DNA of 32,000 bases. It comes from Candidatus Peribacter riflensis (GTDB taxonomy: Bacteria > Patescibacteriota > Gracilibacteria > Peribacterales > Peribacteraceae). Below are positions 8,647-18,754 of this stretch, piece after piece. The notes below the pieces were generated by a model, which searched no databases, was not told the DNA's origin, and saw only the letters and a list, made by a program, of their open reading frames with translations. The position numbers were made by a program, and so were the translations under genes. The number at the start of each line of letters is the position of its first letter. Positions within the stretch are counted from its first letter, which is position 1. The stretch spans positions 150,001 through 182,000 of the forward strand of contig CP013062.1 of the NCBI GenBank assembly GCA_001430755.1, in the 5' to 3' direction.

Positions 8647-10443
<1,797 letters not shown>

Positions 10444-11017: not shown

Positions 11018-12397
11018 ATGAGCAGGCGCAATGATCATTGGTCTTTGGGATGCATTACGCTCCTCTGCGGGCTTCTCTTCCCTTTCACGTTCGCGCAGGC
11101 CGCGAGTGCTCCGCCATTCCCGGACATGGCGAACTCGTGGTACGGCTACCAGGAGAGCACTCAGTACCTCAAAGACAAAGGCTCCATCGGCGGGTACCCC
11201 GATGGGCTCTTTCACCCCCAAGACACGGTCAACCGTGCGGAATTCCTGAAGCTCGTCTTCCGTTCGAAGGGAGCCGCGGAACCGGTCACGGAAGATTGCT
11301 TTGCCGATGTTCCGTCCGATGCGTGGTTCGCGCCGTTCGTGTGCGCGGCCAAGCGGCGTGGAATTATCCAGGGCTACACTGTGGGCTCCCGCCAGGTCTT
11401 CAAGCCGGAGCAGCCGATTAATTTTGCCGAGGCCATCAAGATGGCGGTGCTTTCGTACGGCAGCGAAATTGCCGAAGGCAGCGGCGAAAAGTGGTATCAG
11501 CCGTACGTGGATGAGCTTGATGCGAAGAAGATCCTCGCAAGCTGGTCGTACATTCCGTGGGCTCCCATCACGCGCGAGCGCGCCGCCGACCTGATCGCGC
11601 GTTACGTGCGGCACGATGAAGATCGCGTGCTCCCCCATCTCTCTCCCGGATGCGGCAAATCCGAACGCAATCCTTCGCTTACGCTCACTGTCGGGGGGCA
11701 GGAGAGAACGTATCTGCTCACGCAACCCTCCCATGCCAGTACCTCTACCCCTTCGACGCTCATCGTCGCGTTTCACGGCCGCACCAACGGTAACGCGCAG
11801 GTGCGCGCTTACTTCGGCTTAGACCGCTCTGCATCCGATTCCTTCATCGCCTACCCGTCCGGTATTCCCAATGGCAACGGCAGTTACTCGTGGTCTGACC
11901 CCGGCGACAAGGCACAGGAACTGCGCGACTTCGCGTTGTTTGATGCCATCGTGCGCGAAATCGGCGACAGTGCGTGTATCGACTTAGACCGCATCTACGT
12001 CGTCGGGCATTCGTTGGGCGCGTGGTTTGCCAATTCCGTCGCGTGCGCGCGCGGGGGAGTGGTGCGCGCTTCGGCAACAGTGGGCGGGTCCACGACCATG
12101 AAGAATTGCACGGGTCCCACGGCCGCGCTGATCATCAATAATCCCAAAGATACGCTTTCGTCCCATGTGGCTGCGGAGGCCATGCGCGATATCCGCATCG
12201 CGGCGAATACGTGTTCGCCAAAGAGCGCAAAAACGGAGCCTTCATCCCTCTCGTGCATGCAGTACGCCGATTGTCCGCTCAATCCCGTGGTCTTCTGCCC
12301 GCATACGATCGACCGGGATCGCCATGGCACGTACTACCCGCACCTGTGGCCGGATGGTACCGCGCAGGCGATGGTGAAGTTTTTTGAGGGGTTGTAG
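11018..12397 (+). CDS. secreted SLH-domain protein fused to an alpha/beta-hydrolase (PHB-depolymerase/esterase-like) domain
   Basis: Signal peptide followed by SLH-like repeats (FPDM...GYPDGLFHPQDTVNRAEFLKLV; FADV...GYTVGSRQVFKPEQPINFAEAIKMA). The C-terminal half has LIVAFHGRTNG and the nucleophile elbow GHSLGAW. Confidence 0.88.
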   Translation: MSRRNDHWSLGCITLLCGLLFPFTFAQAASAPPFPDMANSWYGYQESTQYLKDKGSIGGYPDGLFHPQDTVNRAEFLKLVFRSKGAAEPVTEDCFADVPSDAWFAPFVCAAKRRGIIQGYTVGSRQVFKPEQPINFAEAIKMAVLSYGSEIAEGSGEKWYQPYVDELDAKKILASWSYIPWAPITRERAADLIARYVRHDEDRVLPHLSPGCGKSERNPSLTLTVGGQERTYLLTQPSHASTSTPSTLIVAFHGRTNGNAQVRAYFGLDRSASDSFIAYPSGIPNGNGSYSWSDPGDKAQELRDFALFDAIVREIGDSACIDLDRIYVVGHSLGAWFANSVACARGGVVRASATVGGSTTMKNCTGPTAALIINNPKDTLSSHVAAEAMRDIRIAANTCSPKSAKTEPSSLSCMQYADCPLNPVVFCPHTIDRDRHGTYYPHLWPDGTAQAMVKFFEGL

Positions 12398-12501
12398 TAG
12401 GATTGAATATCCTCTGTTGAATCGCACCGACGAAAAAGCATATTTTTAATTACTGTCTAGAAAGATAGACAAGGTAGTGACTTGGTTCGATTGTTTAGCA
12501 C

Positions 12502-12825
12502 ATGCAAACCACTCAGCAAGAGATCGAAAGAGTACTTGAGAAAGTACAGATTATGTCCCTTCCAGAGAATGAACATATTTTTGATTTACATGTTCATGAA
12601 GAGAATAACATTTGGTTTATTGGCGGATGCGTTGGACCGTATGCGCACACCCTCGCCGACGGACAACCATATCCAGTACTGTGTCCATTACCTGTGTCTG
12701 ATTTAGAATTTACATCGAAAGAGGAAGCACTTGAATTTGCACAAGAGGTACACGATGTTTTGTTCGAGAGGGGGCTGGAACCCGATGCATCTACCTTTCG
12801 CCTTCTTGAAAGACAGTCTGTCTGA
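12502..12825 (+). CDS. hypothetical protein (107 aa), island-encoded
   Basis: This is the only sizeable ORF in this stretch and I recognised no family. A nested hairpin ending in a T-run follows it. Confidence 0.5.
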   Translation: MQTTQQEIERVLEKVQIMSLPENEHIFDLHVHEENNIWFIGGCVGPYAHTLADGQPYPVLCPLPVSDLEFTSKEEALEFAQEVHDVLFERGLEPDASTFRLLERQSV

Positions 12826-12883
12826 AGAAGGTGAGACACAGTTGCGGCAGGAGTAACGGCCAGAGAGGACGTGCTTATTTACC

Positions 12884-12958
12884 GGAAGATGCTTCACGCT
12901 TACGTTTCCGATTTTCAGTGGAGATACAATAATCGGAAGGCTTCACAGCATCTTTTTT
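12884..12958 (+). terminator. nested stem structure ending in T6, a terminator-like element
   Basis: The outer stem pairs AAGATGCT (12886-12893) with AGCATCTT (12947-12954). The inner stem pairs TTCCGATT (12906-12913) with AATCGGAA (12931-12938). TTTT follows. Confidence 0.4.
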
Positions 12959-13020
12959 GATCTGCTCCCTTCACGCGTGTTGTCGCGGCAAGCTCTAGGA
13001 GCTTGAAAAACTGATTACGG

Positions 13021-13416
13021 TTAGTCTTCATGTTTTTCAGGAAGCAGTCCTACTGAATCTCCGCTAAACAGCCAATTTACTACTATATATGCTAGTCCAA
13101 GTACCTTTGCCAAATTTTCAGTAATTAAAAGACCAATAAGCCACTTGGCACCTTCATCTTGTGGCGCAAATACTCCAACTCCAATTAGGGGAATCATTAC
13201 CATGTCGTAAATCACGATAAGAACGATGCACAATAGAATCCAACCAGACCATTTCTTTCTCATTGCGATAATGTCTTGTTTTTCTTGTGCAAGAAGCATC
13301 GCAGTCATCCTTCTATCTTCCAATTGAGAAAAGAGGGTAACGGGTATGGTTGGTGTCATACTTCTTTTTGTACCCAAGAGTTTAAGCGCCTCATTTTTTG
13401 TTGGCAGTGAATTCAT
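13021..13416 (-). CDS. small membrane protein (131 aa, 2-3 predicted TM helices), translationally coupled to the ImmA-like gene
   Basis: Hydrophobic segments WILLCIVLIVIYDMVMIPLIGVGVF and WLIGLLI...LGLAYIVVNWLF. Its ATG at 13416 overlaps the upstream TGA (ATGA overlap). A GTG at 13422 is an alternative start. Confidence 0.7.
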   Translation of the reverse strand: MNSLPTKNEALKLLGTKRSMTPTIPVTLFSQLEDRRMTAMLLAQEKQDIIAMRKKWSGWILLCIVLIVIYDMVMIPLIGVGVFAPQDEGAKWLIGLLITENLAKVLGLAYIVVNWLFSGDSVGLLPEKHED

Positions 13417-13940
13417 ATCCACTTCAGTCTAAATTTGATAACATCAGTGGATACGCCAAATATACCAGCTAAGAGTTCTTGATCTGCGTCGGTCTTATTA
13501 AGACTATATTGCTTCATGATTTTTTTGAGCATATCTAGTGGAACCAATAGACTCGCAGCAAAACAATTCGCCTCCTTCTCTATTGGATTATCTTCTTTTG
13601 GACGTGGATACCTTGGTAAAACTCCATACTCATTTGGTTTATGTCCTAGAATAAAATGACCAAGTTCATGAGCAATAGTAAAAGTTTGTCTATTTGGTGG
13701 GTCTGCACGATTCACAAAAATGATCTTTTGTTCTGGATCAAAGAAGCCAGCAACATCTCTCAATGTTTCTGGAAACTGAAGTACTTTCACAGTTAGGCCA
13801 TGTTTTTCTGCAAGACGGGTAATTGGAATTATTGGTTCCTCAATTTCATACTGCCGCAAAATTTCAGCAGCCTTATCTTTCGCCATATCGTATCGAGGTG
13901 AAAGAATAGCTGTCATATGCGCAAAGAATCTCACATTCAT
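13413..13940 (-). CDS. ImmA/IrrE-family (COG2856) zinc metallopeptidase
   Basis: The HEXXH motif HELGH lies at 13656-13670 in the context FTIAHELGHFILGH. The family-typical EKEANCFAASLLVP lies downstream. Alternative ATG starts are at 13916 and 13886, and the track start at 13961 is TTG. Confidence 0.88.
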   Translation of the reverse strand: MNVRFFAHMTAILSPRYDMAKDKAAEILRQYEIEEPIIPITRLAEKHGLTVKVLQFPETLRDVAGFFDPEQKIIFVNRADPPNRQTFTIAHELGHFILGHKPNEYGVLPRYPRPKEDNPIEKEANCFAASLLVPLDMLKKIMKQYSLNKTDADQELLAGIFGVSTDVIKFRLKWI

Positions 13941-14120
13941 ACAACTAGCACAAACTGACAATCATCTTATTTAGTATGAAAAGTATTGTTTTAGGTGCCA
14001 GTAATGAGTTTATGCAACTGTTGATCCTAGTCATAAAGGGGTAGTTACCTATTTACTTGGGTCCCAGACAGGGTTTTTTGAAGGTTGGGTTTTAGGAATG
14101 GGAGGGCAAGACGGTCGGGA

Positions 14121-15785
14121 TCAAGCAAAACAACCCTTTAGATATTCAATAAAATTAATCGCCTTTAGAAGTATCCGCTCAAACCCTATTTGGTATCCAA
14201 CTTTGTCGATGCCGAATTTCTTTAACAAAGCATCATATTCTTTGCCCTTTTTATGTGCCGCCCCTTTTGATCTTAGCTTCTGCAAATCACGTAGGAAGGA
14301 AATATGCAATTCGGCATCAGCACAGCTTTTTTCAGACATAAAACGAGAAAGCCATGTGATGCTTCCTTGTTTTTCTTTATTAATGTATTGCCGAGAACAG
14401 TGCTTGATCAATTCTTCTATATTGATTGATTCGATCAGGACGTGAGCCAATGACAAAATTTGATTATCAAATTCTGCCTGCGTATTTCGCAGAGGAATGT
14501 GCAGCGAATTTAGATGATGCGCATCCTTCTTCGGTAACTCTCCGAATAATTCCCAGCTGTTCTTCTCCTCCCAATCCTTTCTAAAAATTGAAAACCTATG
14601 TCTGAAAAGGAGGTCCGCTTTTTCTGGCTCTGAAAACTGCGCATAAAAATCTCTTTTCAACGATGTCTTGCTGATTGCTTCACCTGGAACGACATTGTGC
14701 GCAAGCCAATGAGCATGATCTTCAAAAGGAAGATCACGTCCCAGATCACCTAAATAAGCAGAAACATAATTTTTGAGATTGTTATCAATGTACATGCTCC
14801 ACATATGACCACAGGTGAGATGTCCATCGTGAACGGTGTATTTCGGGTCATTATAATACTTTTCCAACACTTCTCGCTTGAAGAACACCCGCGTGAGATA
14901 TTGGGGAGCATCAGGATTGGCACCGAAAAAATTTCCAAGCATATGGTGATTGCATGTGTATGACACAGGATCACCGTTTTCGTCTGTTTTAATTACATAC
15001 TTGGGATATTCTCGCTCCTCTTCCTCATCCTGTTTATAAGGCCAAATTCCGCTTTTCTCTTTGGGTAAACCAGTAAGAATTACTTTTCCGATCATTCTTG
15101 AAAAACTTGCTCGTGTATCCCCTCCGAATTTGTCCCGCCACGTCATACAAGTAAATGAAAACCGAGCACTGTCATTCGTATGTTCAAAGGCGATACGATC
15201 TTCATCGATGCCTAATTCTTCCAGGGTCTTATATGACCATCTGCAAAAAGTAAAACATAGGCACAAAGCCATGTCCTTGATCCCGAGAAATTGCCTAACT
15301 TGTTTCAGATGAGCACCAATGTAATCACCATTCATCTTTACTACATCTTCCAAATCTCCATTGTCTAAGACTTTTTGAAACGTGTTTTTTTGTTCATCAA
15401 AAAATAGATTGTGGTAGAGACGAAACTCCTCATTTAGTTCTTTGTATCCGTCTTTTACACCACCAAAGTCCCTTTCGATAATTAGTGGTTCATAATCATA
15501 AAAACTGCCGAAACGCTTGTACTCGATGGTTCCCCTTTTTCCTTTGGTAAACCCAACACAGCCTGGTTGACCATCTATCGAACAATCATGCCAATCCGAA
15601 CGCTTAAGTTCTTCGGGAATTCGTGAAGTAGGAATCATGCAGCAGTGAAACAAAAGATCATCAACTAGCTGCCTACTCTCCCGTCTTTCTCTTGAGTCAT
15701 GCAAGGTAAGCCATTGCTCTGTGCGCATTTTATTCAATACATACTCACGAAGATCCTCTTGGAGTAACCATGACTTGTCGCTCAT
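14121..15785 (-). CDS. large uncharacterised protein (554 aa) with a C-terminal HEPN-like Rx5H motif
   Basis: Long, clean AT-rich ORF. The C-terminal helical region contains LQKLRSKGAAHKKG, with the R and H codons at 14271-14273 and 14253-14255. His/Cys clusters occur at CNHHMLGNF and VHDGHLTCGHMW. I recognised no family for the first roughly 450 aa. Confidence 0.85.
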   Translation of the reverse strand: MSDKSWLLQEDLREYVLNKMRTEQWLTLHDSRERRESRQLVDDLLFHCCMIPTSRIPEELKRSDWHDCSIDGQPGCVGFTKGKRGTIEYKRFGSFYDYEPLIIERDFGGVKDGYKELNEEFRLYHNLFFDEQKNTFQKVLDNGDLEDVVKMNGDYIGAHLKQVRQFLGIKDMALCLCFTFCRWSYKTLEELGIDEDRIAFEHTNDSARFSFTCMTWRDKFGGDTRASFSRMIGKVILTGLPKEKSGIWPYKQDEEEEREYPKYVIKTDENGDPVSYTCNHHMLGNFFGANPDAPQYLTRVFFKREVLEKYYNDPKYTVHDGHLTCGHMWSMYIDNNLKNYVSAYLGDLGRDLPFEDHAHWLAHNVVPGEAISKTSLKRDFYAQFSEPEKADLLFRHRFSIFRKDWEEKNSWELFGELPKKDAHHLNSLHIPLRNTQAEFDNQILSLAHVLIESINIEELIKHCSRQYINKEKQGSITWLSRFMSEKSCADAELHISFLRDLQKLRSKGAAHKKGKEYDALLKKFGIDKVGYQIGFERILLKAINFIEYLKGCFA

Positions 15786-15791
15786 GTGTCA

Positions 15792-15818
15792 ATTATAGGG
15801 CACATGGGTCACATGCCC
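15792..15818 (-). promoter_or_regulatory. TATAAT box 6 nt upstream of the ATG, plus an adjacent imperfect palindrome (possible operator)
   Basis: The minus strand reads GGGCATGTGACCCATGTGCCC-TATAAT-tgacac-ATG. In the 21-nt palindrome, 7 of 10 positions are Watson-Crick pairs and 1 is a wobble pair. Confidence 0.4.
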
Positions 15819-15822
15819 ATAG

Positions 15823-15839
15823 TGGCTGGGGAGGAGGGA
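15823..15839 (-). repeat. 17-nt perfect copy of the tRNA-Gln 3' end (att-like remnant)
   Basis: TGGCTGGGGAGGAGGGA is identical to 17385-17401. That stretch covers the CCA, the discriminator, the 3' acceptor strand and the 3' T-stem strand of tRNA-Gln. Confidence 0.85.
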
Positions 15840-15868
15840 AAAGCAGACCGTTCCGCATGTTTCGTTCT

Positions 15869-17296
15869 TCAGCTCCCGTACCGGCTGCGGAGCAGAACAT
15901 CCTGCCAGTTCATTTCGTAGAATTCCTTGGTCGCCGAAGTCTCCCGCGCTTTGTTCAGCCACTCCTGCCATCGTTCATCGGCTTGCGGCTGCGTGCTTTC
16001 TTCGAGGACAAGGCCGTACACATCACCCGAGAGCATTTTCAGCTCCAGCATGTCGATGCGCGAAGTCGGCAGCGCGGCCAGTCGCCGGTTCAGCCGGAAG
16101 ATCGCCTGCTCCACGGGGAACACGGTCGCCACGGCGTACATCCAGACAAACGCGACCACGATGAACTTCACCATGTCGGGTTTGCCCTTCTGAAAGAGCG
16201 CCGCAATCAACCGGACAAAGAGGAGGATCGAAAACAGCACGGTGTAGAGCGCGAAGAACTTTTCGTAGCTGAAGCCGTAGGTGTACACGTACATGCCCAT
16301 GCGGTTGGCTGCCGAGAACAGGAGCAGGAGCGACGCGACCATGAATACCATGAGGATGTGCTGCACGGGCCGGGCCGTCCGGCGGTAGTAAATGAGAAAG
16401 AGCAACGCGTTGATGCCGCTCAAGAAGAAGAGCTCCCAGAAGCCGTTTTTCACCAGCCGTTCCGTTTCGAGGAACTCCGTCGGAAGCGTCGGCACCCACA
16501 GGGAGGAGAGTTGCGTGAGGAGGAAGAGGATGTAGAGACCGAGCACGCCCCCCAGGACGATGCCGGAAATAACGCTGTCCATGGGCTTCATTTGCGTCGA
16601 TGCGAACGTTTCCTCCCGTGTCCAGCGGACGATGCCGGCGAGCAAGAGGAGCGTAAGCAGGACAAAAACGCCGAAGCGCACCAGTGTTTCCACAGAAATG
16701 ATTTTCAGCAACGGTTCGTAGACCTGCCGGACCAGTTCGGCAAAGCGCGCATCAGCGTCGGAGAGGAGCGGGATGAAGATGAGGCAGGCCACAACAGCAA
16801 AAATCACCACACCGATTGCGATGCGCTTGTGCAGGTCGGACCGCTTGTTGCCGGAGGGCAGAACGCTCCCGATGGTCAGTGACACGGCTGTTGCCAGCGC
16901 GCTCACGATCCCGACGAAACGTTCAACGATCCTCAGGAGCCAGCTGATATTCCACACGACGCTTTGGGAGTTGCGCGTCGAAGACACGATCCATGCGGCT
17001 GCGAAAAGCGTCGGCACGACCAGGCAGTTCACCAGTTTGATGTACGGGTTTTCGTACAGGGCATAGCTGACCGCAATCAATCCCAGCGGTATGAGAAAGA
17101 GCAGGTCCGCCCGTTGCCACGTTCGTTTTTCGGACGCGAAGGCATAGATCGCCATGGCGCCCACAATGAACACGGATATATTCCAGCCGAATGCCGAGAC
17201 GTCTTTCTCCCAGACATTCCACGCGGTCAGCACCCAGAAGAGGGAGAGCGCCAGCGCACCGTAGACGGTCATTCTTTTCCGCCAAGAAGCATCCAT
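15869..17296 (-). CDS. polytopic membrane protein (475 aa; DUF4153/DUF4173-like is my guess)
   Basis: Many hydrophobic helices. The ORF track extends it to 17644, but that extension reads through tRNA-Gln. The first ATG downstream of the tRNA is at 17296 (MDASWRKRMTVYG...). Confidence 0.8.
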   Translation of the reverse strand: MDASWRKRMTVYGALALSLFWVLTAWNVWEKDVSAFGWNISVFIVGAMAIYAFASEKRTWQRADLLFLIPLGLIAVSYALYENPYIKLVNCLVVPTLFAAAWIVSSTRNSQSVVWNISWLLRIVERFVGIVSALATAVSLTIGSVLPSGNKRSDLHKRIAIGVVIFAVVACLIFIPLLSDADARFAELVRQVYEPLLKIISVETLVRFGVFVLLTLLLLAGIVRWTREETFASTQMKPMDSVISGIVLGGVLGLYILFLLTQLSSLWVPTLPTEFLETERLVKNGFWELFFLSGINALLFLIYYRRTARPVQHILMVFMVASLLLLFSAANRMGMYVYTYGFSYEKFFALYTVLFSILLFVRLIAALFQKGKPDMVKFIVVAFVWMYAVATVFPVEQAIFRLNRRLAALPTSRIDMLELKMLSGDVYGLVLEESTQPQADERWQEWLNKARETSATKEFYEMNWQDVLLRSRYGS

Positions 17297-17384
17297 GGAG
17301 AGGGAAGGAAAGAAGTCCGATGGTAGCAGCGTTGGAGGTGTGGTGCTATGTAGTTCCCGAGCGGGAACGAGGAACGAAGCCGGA

Positions 17385-17459
17385 TGGCTGGGGAGGAGGG
17401 ATTCGAACCCCCGAATGCCTGCTCCAGAGGCAGGTGCCTTACCACTTGGCGACTCCCCA
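17385..17459 (-). tRNA. tRNA-Gln (anticodon CTG), CCA encoded
   Basis: The minus strand reads TGGGGAG-TC-GCCAAGTGGTAAGGC-A-CCTGC-CTCTGGA-GCAGG-CATTC-GGGGG-TTCGAAT-CCCTC-CTCCCCA-G-CCA. This is the same architecture as E. coli tRNA-Gln, including the U1-A72 pair. Confidence 0.93.
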
Positions 17460-17526
17460 ACGTGAAACGATGATAGCAGGAATGGGCTCTCGCCCGCCGT
17501 AGTCCCGCGAAGCGGGCGAAGGTGGG

Positions 17527-17537
17527 CTCCCCAACGT
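17527..17537 (-). repeat. 11-nt repeat of the tRNA-Gln 5' junction
   Basis: CTCCCCAACGT at 17527-17537 equals 17453-17463, which comprises tRNA positions 1-7 plus 4 upstream nt. The spacing is 74 nt. Confidence 0.7.
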
Positions 17538-17656
17538 ATGCAGGAGGATAGCAAAGCCTGCTCTGTGTGGAAACGACTCATAGGTTTTTCTTCCCGGCTT
17601 GTTTTCTTCAGAGCTGAGACAGGATCTCTTTCATCCGTTCCCACGCCGCATTCCGC

Positions 17657-18094: not shown

Positions 18095-18754
18095 GTTCTA
18101 GAGTGCCTTCAAAAAGGGGATAAGACGCCTTGCGGGAGCTCAAGGAAAAGATATACAATGTGCACGTATCCATACGAATTGGGATCCGAACGGCCCCGTG
18201 CCTAAGGAGCCCTTTTCTTTAAGGTAAATGCAATTTTGGCTTGGATGCCGGGGTTTTCCAGATAATCAAATAATTCCGATCCGAGTTTGCTATACAGAGA
18301 GGAGGCAAATTTTCTATCCGGAAAAAGTAATTTCTTGAACATTCCTTTCTGAATCAGAAAATCAACAACTTTTTTATAATCGCCGTCACCTGAAACAAGG
18401 AGCACCTTATTGAAATCTTTTCTCTCAATGATTGTTTTCATGATTTCAAAAACGATATCGGTATCGACATTGCCTTTCTTGGTGCCTTTCAGGGTGGAGA
18501 TATGTTCTTTGAACAGGACGATGAAGCCTGCCTTTTGCAGATTGCTGTAGAGACTCTGTTGTTCTTCCGAAACGTAACCGAGAAAATAGTAGGCCTCATC
18601 CACCTGATATTTATCCTTCAGATATATCCTGAATTTCGCATGGTCGACCTTCCAGCCGTTCTGCGTAGTGCCGAGGTGTAGGTTTTGCCCGTCAATGAAC
18701 GCAAGATTCGATTCCTTCTCCATGCGGGGATTTTATCACACTGTCACGCCGGGA
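18095..18754. mobile_element. 660-bp AT-rich insertion carrying only an NYN-domain gene, bounded by 32-bp direct repeats
   Basis: Perfect direct repeats flank it. Composition shifts sharply by eye. The target gene's 3' end was replaced and the displaced tail is retained. No recombinase is present. Confidence 0.6.
18202..18723 (-). CDS. NYN-domain (LabA/DUF88-like, PIN-like fold) putative RNase
   Basis: LAFIDGQNL, KGNVDTDI and LLVSGDGDY match the acidic motifs of NYN/LabA domains. TGATAAAAT lies 6 nt upstream of the ATG. Confidence 0.88.
   Translation of the reverse strand: MEKESNLAFIDGQNLHLGTTQNGWKVDHAKFRIYLKDKYQVDEAYYFLGYVSEEQQSLYSNLQKAGFIVLFKEHISTLKGTKKGNVDTDIVFEIMKTIIERKDFNKVLLVSGDGDYKKVVDFLIQKGMFKKLLFPDRKFASSLYSKLGSELFDYLENPGIQAKIAFTLKKRAP

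Follow-up and report, generated by a model that had tools for sequence, protein, structure and literature searches.

A widespread family of candidate HEPN-type RNase effectors represented on a low-GC islet of Candidatus Peribacter riflensis

In the classic PrrC arrangement, the gene of a HEPN anticodon nuclease lies inside a type I restriction-modification (R-M) operon, and the R-M enzyme masks the nuclease. Guard logic of the PrrC type so far rests on very few systems. ApeA is a single protein of about 600 residues, whose N-terminal and HEPN domains together form a ligand-binding pocket that switches on the HEPN RNase. Its substrates, according to the ApeA papers, are tRNA anticodon loops or phage RNA, and the ApeA authors name HepT as the closest structural relative of its HEPN domain. 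The solved N-terminal and Mid domains of ApeA are predominantly alpha-helical and are packed on the HEPN domain. A 2013 survey described an 'ApeA-NTD1' region that is mostly beta, with conserved aromatic residues, and it also reported the insertion of ApeA in type I R-M operons of epsilonproteobacteria. Here, we describe a protein of 554 residues encoded in a 32,000-nucleotide stretch of the Candidatus Peribacter riflensis genome (GenBank assembly GCA_001430755.1, contig CP013062.1, positions 150,001 to 182,000 of the forward strand), referred to below as the window, whose own numbering is used throughout. We consider it probable, with some reservation, that this protein combines a HEPN-type RNase with an N-terminal domain, specific to its family, for regulation or sensing, and that it serves as an effector in phage defence or abortive infection by means of a predicted RNase activity.

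An invariant Arg/His motif in a large protein family

The gene of the 554-residue protein is complete and, with its stop codon, occupies positions 14121..15785 on the minus strand. A preliminary description of the locus, made from the sequence alone, took this long frame for a real gene, and the list of open reading frames (ORFs), in which it is uninterrupted from its ATG start, together with the full-length homologues, bears this out. The same description called the protein an orphan, which is wrong. Among 5.8 billion proteins, a word-indexed search returned 384 homologous clusters at 90% identity; almost all of the best 120 of the 384 are full length, with identities of 35-43%. An exhaustive hidden Markov model search of 1.84 billion representatives clustered at 50% identity yielded 2,944 proteins at E<=1e-3, with 1,291 at E<=1e-30. 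When one genome per species was scanned, relatives were present in >503 genomes, bacterial and archaeal, and the spread includes Cyanobacteria, Chloroflexota, Planctomycetota, Nitrospirota, Actinomycetota, Bacillota, and Pseudomonadota as well as three archaeal orders that are methanogenic or methanotrophic. Mobile carriers of relatives comprise 12 plasmids and 13 IMG/VR contigs; no relative was found in GenBank phage genomes, and an exact-sequence look-up of the window protein in the contig index gave no match.

This large and widespread family is unnamed in Pfam, NCBIfam, and PADLOC. The window protein itself has no match in Pfam, NCBIfam (2026), or PADLOC, the distant plasmid relatives have none in Pfam, and a literature search found no published description of the family. 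All named members are 'hypothetical' except the UniRef entry P0021, which is called 'ApeA N-terminal domain-containing protein'.

The segment LQKLRSKGAAHKKG begins at residue 501 and contains R505 (codon 14271-14273) and H511 (codon 14253-14255), and these recomputed positions agree with those of the preliminary description. R505-S-K-G-A-A-H511 constitutes an Rx5H motif (14253..14273, minus strand) that, by its invariance and its position at the end of a helix, is predicted to supply the catalytic Arg and His of a metal-independent RNase. The conservation of the two residues, on which the first HEPN reading of the locus had been made to depend, was checked in an alignment of 115 homologues; both are invariant (115/115), and non-conservation is excluded. 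The spacing between them is Rx5H in 107 homologues, Rx4H in 7, and Rx6H in 1, which spans exactly the HEPN-defining range of Rx4-6H (Anantharaman et al. 2013, PMC3710099). S506 is kept in 108/115 and is followed by a nearly invariant R/K-K-G. Relatives at 20-28% identity retain the motif, some as the canonical RNxxxxH; it reads LRNEIRGH in a relative on a Pseudomonas aeruginosa megaplasmid and SRNKLAGH and LRSKLQGH in relatives on IMG/VR contigs, and it is also retained in Rhodococcus and Streptomyces plasmid proteins.

Domain architecture and predicted structure

A full-length AlphaFold2 model built from the 115-sequence alignment is confident, with a predicted local distance difference test (pLDDT) score of 92.6 and a predicted template modelling (TM) score of 0.85. 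By DSSP assignment on this model, beta strands, several with a length of 10-13 residues, make up most of residues 25-344, and residues 345-554 are helical. The motif does lie in a helical C-terminal segment, as had been proposed from the sequence, but the proposed division into an N-terminal unit of 450 residues and a C-terminal motif gives way to a boundary near residue 294 and a helical domain from about residue 345. Three parts can be distinguished, all on the minus strand. Residues 1-293 (14907..15785) form a beta-rich N-terminal accessory domain. Residues 294-344 (14754..14906) form a small beta subdomain at the start of the conserved core, marked by the motif YLTPVFFRxEVLxKYY...C325...W329...D334-N335. 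Residues 345-554 (14124..14753) form an entirely helical C-terminal domain, which is the candidate for a HEPN-type nuclease.

The helical domain opens with the superfamily-wide motif LGDLGRDLPxxEQxxWxxxN at residues 345-364 (14694..14753, minus strand), which includes D347, L348, E356, W360, and N364 and holds the best-conserved superfamily positions besides R505 and H511. These seven residues together with D421 are invariant or nearly invariant across the superfamily. In the N-terminal domain of the 554-residue family, E116 and E120 are invariant and R122, H125, and K170 nearly so, R122 and H125 having also been counted as invariant. The modelled helices comprise residues 345-350, 354-361, 373-381, 390-409, 436-452, 475-485, 491-509, 515-523, and 531-553, and the short helices 456-462 and 475-485 sit between helix 436-452 and helix 491-509. 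R505 lies near the end of helix 491-509 and H511 in the loop 510-514, with helices 515-523 and 531-553 following. In the predicted model, this placement of the motif relative to the helices fits the definition of HEPN domains (PMC3710099).

The modularity of the protein is evident from a free-standing sister family of about 280 residues. The IMG/VR loci L102-L105 match residues 296-387 only, and the proteins encoded there are about 280 residues long (L102:7001-7843, L103:7950-8792, L104:1455-2297, L105:5660-6502); further sister genes lie at L106:6001-6852 and L107:6001-6843. Of the conserved core motifs, these proteins retain FLTPVYF and WLGDL..EQ..W...N, and their Arg/His motif reads LRLWADH (Rx4H) near the C-terminus; the N-terminal domain of 293 residues is absent. 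The sister family numbers 225 homologous clusters, all 'hypothetical' and without a Pfam match, with P0293 (Maritalea) and P0371 (Vreelandella stevensii) as examples. Alignment of the two families by hhalign gave a probability of 99.5% (E 6e-23, 256 columns), with residues 294-554 aligned to residues 16-280 of the shorter family and the Arg residues in register. Since the shorter family aligns to residues 294-554 only, these residues are the conserved unit and residues 1-293 are detachable, which lends some support to the sensor role that we infer for the N-terminal domain. A 276-residue Streptomyces plasmid protein is another minimal form. Some copies of the sister gene are found inside phage or gene transfer agent-like structural gene clusters, and one, located between trmD and rplS, has genes for a WYL regulator and DUF5677 beside it.

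A separate model of residues 340-554 (pLDDT 85.8) was compared by Foldseek with 350,542 PDB chains. The first-ranked chain is 1wwp_A (E 0.6, probability 0.63, target TM 0.43), a minimal MNT-associated HEPN named as such by Anantharaman et al. 2013 (PMC3710099), and the HEPN toxin HepT (6m6w_B, target TM 0.45) ranks fifteenth. For this predicted domain, the fold evidence is supportive of HEPN but weak. The full-length model has a sole significant PDB neighbour, the STAND pattern-recognition receptor Avs3 (8dgc; E 7.7e-4, probability 1.0, 245 columns). The C-terminal model alone does not retrieve 8dgc, so by elimination the match stems from the N-terminal part, and the N-terminal domain may be structurally related to part of Avs3. 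A 2026 paper reported that Avs sensor domains can be common to non-STAND defence proteins, one of them HEPN-like, which makes sharing of a sensor a reasonable lead for the N-terminal domain. Matches of the full-length model to START/Bet v1-like folds were of low probability, and Foldseek against BFVD returned nothing. One homologue of 857 residues, P0027, carries a C-terminal PNP_UDP_1 (nucleoside phosphorylase) domain after its HEPN-like domain (Pfam 4e-12).

The preliminary description had also pointed to potential metal-binding Cys/His clusters at YTCNHHMLGNF, which begins at residue 276, and at VHDGHLTCGHMW, which begins at residue 318. Such clusters are not a feature of the family and are rejected. 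Among the 115 homologues, H280 is kept in 6, H322 in 10, and C278 in 46; H281 is not among the top residues at its position, and H319 and H327 are mostly replaced by E and G/S. At the His positions of the two strings, the family mostly has P, D, E, Y, or G/S, and C325 is the sole conserved position (108/115).

Genomic contexts of the homologues and of the window copy

The neighbourhoods of the homologues were surveyed at 85 loci by clustering the ORFs within 4 kb and by comparing 150 immediate neighbours with Pfam and PADLOC. They show the pattern of defence or conflict genes. The commonest immediate neighbour is a PIN-domain gene (13/150), which is present in 13-14 loci (L024, L025, L032, L039, L043, L050, L058-L060, L062, L066, L072, L074, L086; gene ends at about 9650-9800), always directly downstream and with a 4-bp overlap. 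It accompanies only those members that have an extra conserved C-terminal tail of about 45 residues, ending in ...D(G/A)SVNHD(D/E)xIYEL. This tail, which the window protein does not have, may resemble an antitoxin, as a fused segment that binds PIN. The PIN-linked clade consists of homologues of about 600 residues in Caldilineaceae, Poribacteria, Latescibacterota, and Nitrospinota, and its PIN gene encodes 136 residues.

A second recurrent context is the type I R-M operon, in which about 9-10 of the 85 homologous loci are embedded; the window copy is not. An HsdS gene lies directly upstream in about 9/85 loci, an HsdR gene directly downstream in 4, and an HsdM gene farther upstream. The Methanothrix homologue is placed between hsdS and hsdR with a 4-bp overlap on each side, and the same R-M arrangement occurs in Planctomycetota, Verrucomicrobiota, Gammaproteobacteria, and Methanomicrobiales. 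Other recurrent neighbours encode a Uma2 endonuclease (4-5 loci), Mrr_cat (2), NACHT-associated restriction endonuclease domains (2), and integrases (2), and single loci adjoin genes for SIR2, for SNF2 with a helicase and a methylase, and for SAVED with a nucleotidyltransferase.

Some individual loci deserve mention. In Paenibacillus protaetiae, a STAND/NACHT-like NTPase of about 1,400 residues is encoded directly downstream of the homologue (L002:7644-11855), followed by a 2,027-residue AAA_16 protein. The same NTPase (27% identity, E 4e-111) follows a homologue truncated by an insertion sequence on a Moraxella osloensis plasmid (L087:5417-9571), and the STAND NTPase and the homologue may constitute a recurrent operon in one subclade. 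In Coleofasciculus, an ORF of 113 residues with the string FRNVVVHEY, recognized as DUF86/HepT-like by regular expression only, lies about 500 bp downstream of a family member (L011:10088-10429, plus strand) and is probably part of an MNT-HEPN pair.

The window copy is a solitary version of the gene, intact and located on a horizontally acquired low-GC islet. The guanine-plus-cytosine (GC) content is 38-44% around the gene versus about 60% elsewhere in the window, and by composition the islet extends over about 3.4 kb (~12398..15868). It is flanked by the gene for an SLH-domain protein (11018-12397, plus strand) and by a DUF4153 membrane-protein gene (15869-17644, minus strand) whose stop lies at 15869. 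The mechanical 591-residue ORF of the latter crosses a tRNA-Gln(CTG) gene (17385-17459, minus strand), and the true DUF4153 start is therefore downstream of 17385; the Pfam match to DUF4153 spans residues 185-541 of this ORF. The flanking repeats at the islet are only short ones at chance level, and a tRNA-linked integration site is unsupported, the tRNA-Gln gene lying 1.5 kb outside the islet.

The islet also contains a gene for an M78 (ImmA/IrrE-type) peptidase with a HELGH motif (13413-13961, minus strand; Pfam Peptidase_M78 1e-23, PADLOC capP 7e-23) and an ORF for a membrane protein of 133 residues (13021-13422, minus strand), which overlaps the 3' end of the M78 gene by 10 bp. The M78 peptidase with the 133-residue membrane ORF is an unusual pairing (13021-13961). 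On the plus strand, there is an ORF of 107 residues without a family match (12502-12825) and a short frame (12880-12960) ending in YRKMLHAYVSDFQWRYNNRKASQHLF before its stop, which gave the impression of an IS1595 transposase C-terminus; Pfam gives this no support, and it was set aside. No R-M genes were seen among the window neighbours scanned between 8.6 and 22.5 kb. An NYN-domain gene for a predicted RNase (18202-18723, minus strand; Pfam 3e-15), 2.4 kb off the islet and adjoining an M23 peptidase gene, is probably unrelated housekeeping.

Upstream of the 554-residue gene, a consensus scan found a promoter-like site, TGGGCA-16 nt-TATAAT (15792..15819, minus strand), after the terminator-like hairpin that closes the upstream gene. 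Its perfect TATAAT ends 6 nt upstream of the ATG, which leaves no room for a Shine-Dalgarno sequence. The count of promoter-like sites in the region is not above shuffle expectation, and the site is a positional hint only; the gene may have an independent, possibly leaderless transcript.

Proposed function and comparison with known systems

In the mechanism proposed here, the 554-residue protein would be a two-module and probably stand-alone conflict or defence effector. Its core (residues 294-554), consisting of the beta subdomain and the helical bundle, would be a divergent HEPN-type metal-independent RNase in which R505 and H511, located where the penultimate core helix ends, would form a composite active site when two subunits pair. 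Residues 1-293 would most likely hold the nuclease latent and release it on an infection cue. The activated enzyme would then stop phage growth by cleaving RNA of the cell, of the phage, or of both, with tRNA anticodon loops, mRNA, or rRNA as its targets. Homologues embedded in R-M operons would represent a PrrC-like 'guard' arrangement, and others are coupled to a PIN RNase gene. In a more specific form, which we put forward tentatively and at somewhat less than an even chance, the family is a widespread anti-phage one, missing from the PADLOC defence catalogue as well as from Pfam and NCBIfam, in which a HEPN-like RNase core that also exists free-standing is joined to a new beta-rich N-terminal sensor, possibly Avs3-related, that either guards type I R-M in the manner of PrrC or recognizes a phage component directly.

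Several findings weigh against assigning the core to HEPN. No sequence or profile method ties the family to a known HEPN family (Pfam, NCBIfam, PADLOC, PDB, hhalign): Pfam gave no match at E<=10, and no HEPN family, for 86 family members; PDB sequence searches with four family profiles gave chance-level matches only; and four family alignments, compared by hhalign with an 18-sequence ApeA alignment, reached probabilities of 0.2-0.6%. The ApeA sample includes Ec1ApeA (WP_000706972.1) and Ec2ApeA, whose genes were obtained from E. coli genomes by means of the DNA in a preprint supplement. The HEPN structural matches are non-significant (E 0.6-2.2, TM 0.29-0.45), with none at E<=0.001. The residue after the motif Arg is mostly S and not the N/D/H typical of HEPN, although it is still polar, and no R-M, PIN, or other defence gene adjoins the window copy, whose sole notable neighbour is the M78 peptidase. 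The silence of Pfam on the family weighs little, because neither Ec1ApeA nor Ec2ApeA, both of them validated HEPN proteins, has a Pfam-A match at E<=0.01 in the 2025 Pfam. The HEPN reading first made from the sequence is supported by the invariance of R505 and H511, their HEPN-like spacing, their position at a HEPN-like helix end, and a HEPN as top PDB neighbour; no fold or profile match to a HEPN is significant. Alternatively, the helical domain with its conserved Arg/His and LGDLG...W...N might not be a HEPN RNase; as part of a conflict-system protein, it could be a different hydrolase or could bind nucleotides or nucleic acids. Short R...H motifs can evolve independently, and residues 345-364, the best-conserved block outside the motif, are not a described HEPN feature. 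We regard this alternative as unlikely, given that the motif shows the HEPN spacing range, a polar residue after the Arg, and a HEPN-like helix position, that the top structural neighbour among all PDB chains compared is a HEPN, and that the R-M operon and defence-island contexts match those of known HEPN nucleases.

CapP-type proteases regulate defence operons, and the window protein might be the toxin of a local module in which the downstream M78 (ImmA/IrrE/CapP-like) metallopeptidase and the 133-residue membrane protein control its activity or expression. The three genes share a strand within a single low-GC islet, no terminator-like site separates the 554-residue gene from the M78 gene, and the peptidase matches both Peptidase_M78 and PADLOC capP at the E-values given above. 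However, no ImmR/CapH-like helix-turn-helix partner of the peptidase is found among the islet ORFs, M78 is missing from the neighbour census, and neither an M78 gene nor the membrane ORF occurs beside the 84 other homologous loci, bar one weak M78 match 3.6 kb away (L045). The two genes are rejected as conserved partners, and the module as a whole is improbable. Still less credible is that the 554-residue protein is a divergent member of the ApeA family, to which we give very little weight. Such membership would agree with the UniRef name of P0021, with the similar size, with an Rx4-6H motif that precedes the C-terminus by about 40-80 residues, with the best, non-significant hhalign alignment, which sets R505 opposite R521 of Ec1ApeA, and with the 'ApeA-NTD1' of 2013, whose mostly beta content and conserved aromatics resemble the N-terminus of the window protein. 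On the other side, PADLOC and NCBIfam gave no match at E<=1, a result to be read with the presence of an ApeA model in both being inferred and Ec1ApeA not scanned as a control; the Prokaryotic Genome Annotation Pipeline (PGAP) names Ec1ApeA 'HEPN family anti-phage protein ApeA', implying a curated model. Neither P0021 nor the 85 other members examined match Pfam ApeA_NTD1 or HEPN_Apea, the hhalign probability stays <1%, and the solved ApeA N-terminus is predominantly alpha-helical, in contrast to the beta-rich one of the model predicted here.

If the family does consist of HEPN-type RNase effectors, about 3,000 protein clusters, bacterial and archaeal, would gain a function. A new branch of HEPN nucleases would be defined, with its own sensor, a free-standing core form, and two recurrent partnerships, namely insertion in type I R-M operons and translational coupling to PIN. 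The R-M-embedded members would then be a second, ATPase-free case of the PrrC logic of guarding the restriction enzyme. Since the accessory domain can be detached, truncation offers a direct test of the sensor-effector hypothesis.

Among known systems, HepT/DUF86 toxins (1wwp, 6m6w, 7AE8) resemble the window protein in having Rx4-6H at the end of helix 3, the structural similarity being non-significant, but the window protein is four times larger and has extra subdomains. With regard to MNT-HEPN pairing, no nucleotidyltransferase is present in the islet or among the recurrent neighbours of the homologues. Two HEPN-like ORFs, picked out of the fetched loci by regular expression, were also compared by hhalign, with a negative result of low power. 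The likeness to PrrC lies in the subset of homologues whose genes stand between hsdS and hsdR, with stop and start codons that overlap those of the neighbours. Unlike PrrC and RloC, the window family has no ABC ATPase or other NTPase domain according to Pfam, NCBIfam, and PADLOC, and most homologues, the window copy included, are not beside R-M genes.

ApeA is the closest functional analogue. The genes used for comparison are those of Ec1ApeA (L091:2501-4306) and Ec2ApeA (L092:2501-4252); the latter, a 'hypothetical protein' in PGAP, lies inside a tail and lysis gene cluster of a P2-like prophage. Like ApeA, the window protein is one polypeptide of about 550-600 residues whose Rx4-6H motif lies towards the C-terminal end, within a helical domain that contains insertions, and both have a large N-terminal part, which in ApeA is a ligand-sensing switch together with HEPN, and occur in mobile or defence contexts. 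Unlike ApeA, the window family has a beta-rich N-terminal region of 290 residues, the motif RSxGxAH in place of the RNKIxH of ApeA, and a core that also exists as a free-standing protein of about 280 residues. The family would thus far count as a new branch, at family level, of the HEPN defence effectors that consist of a single protein, and not as a categorically new system.

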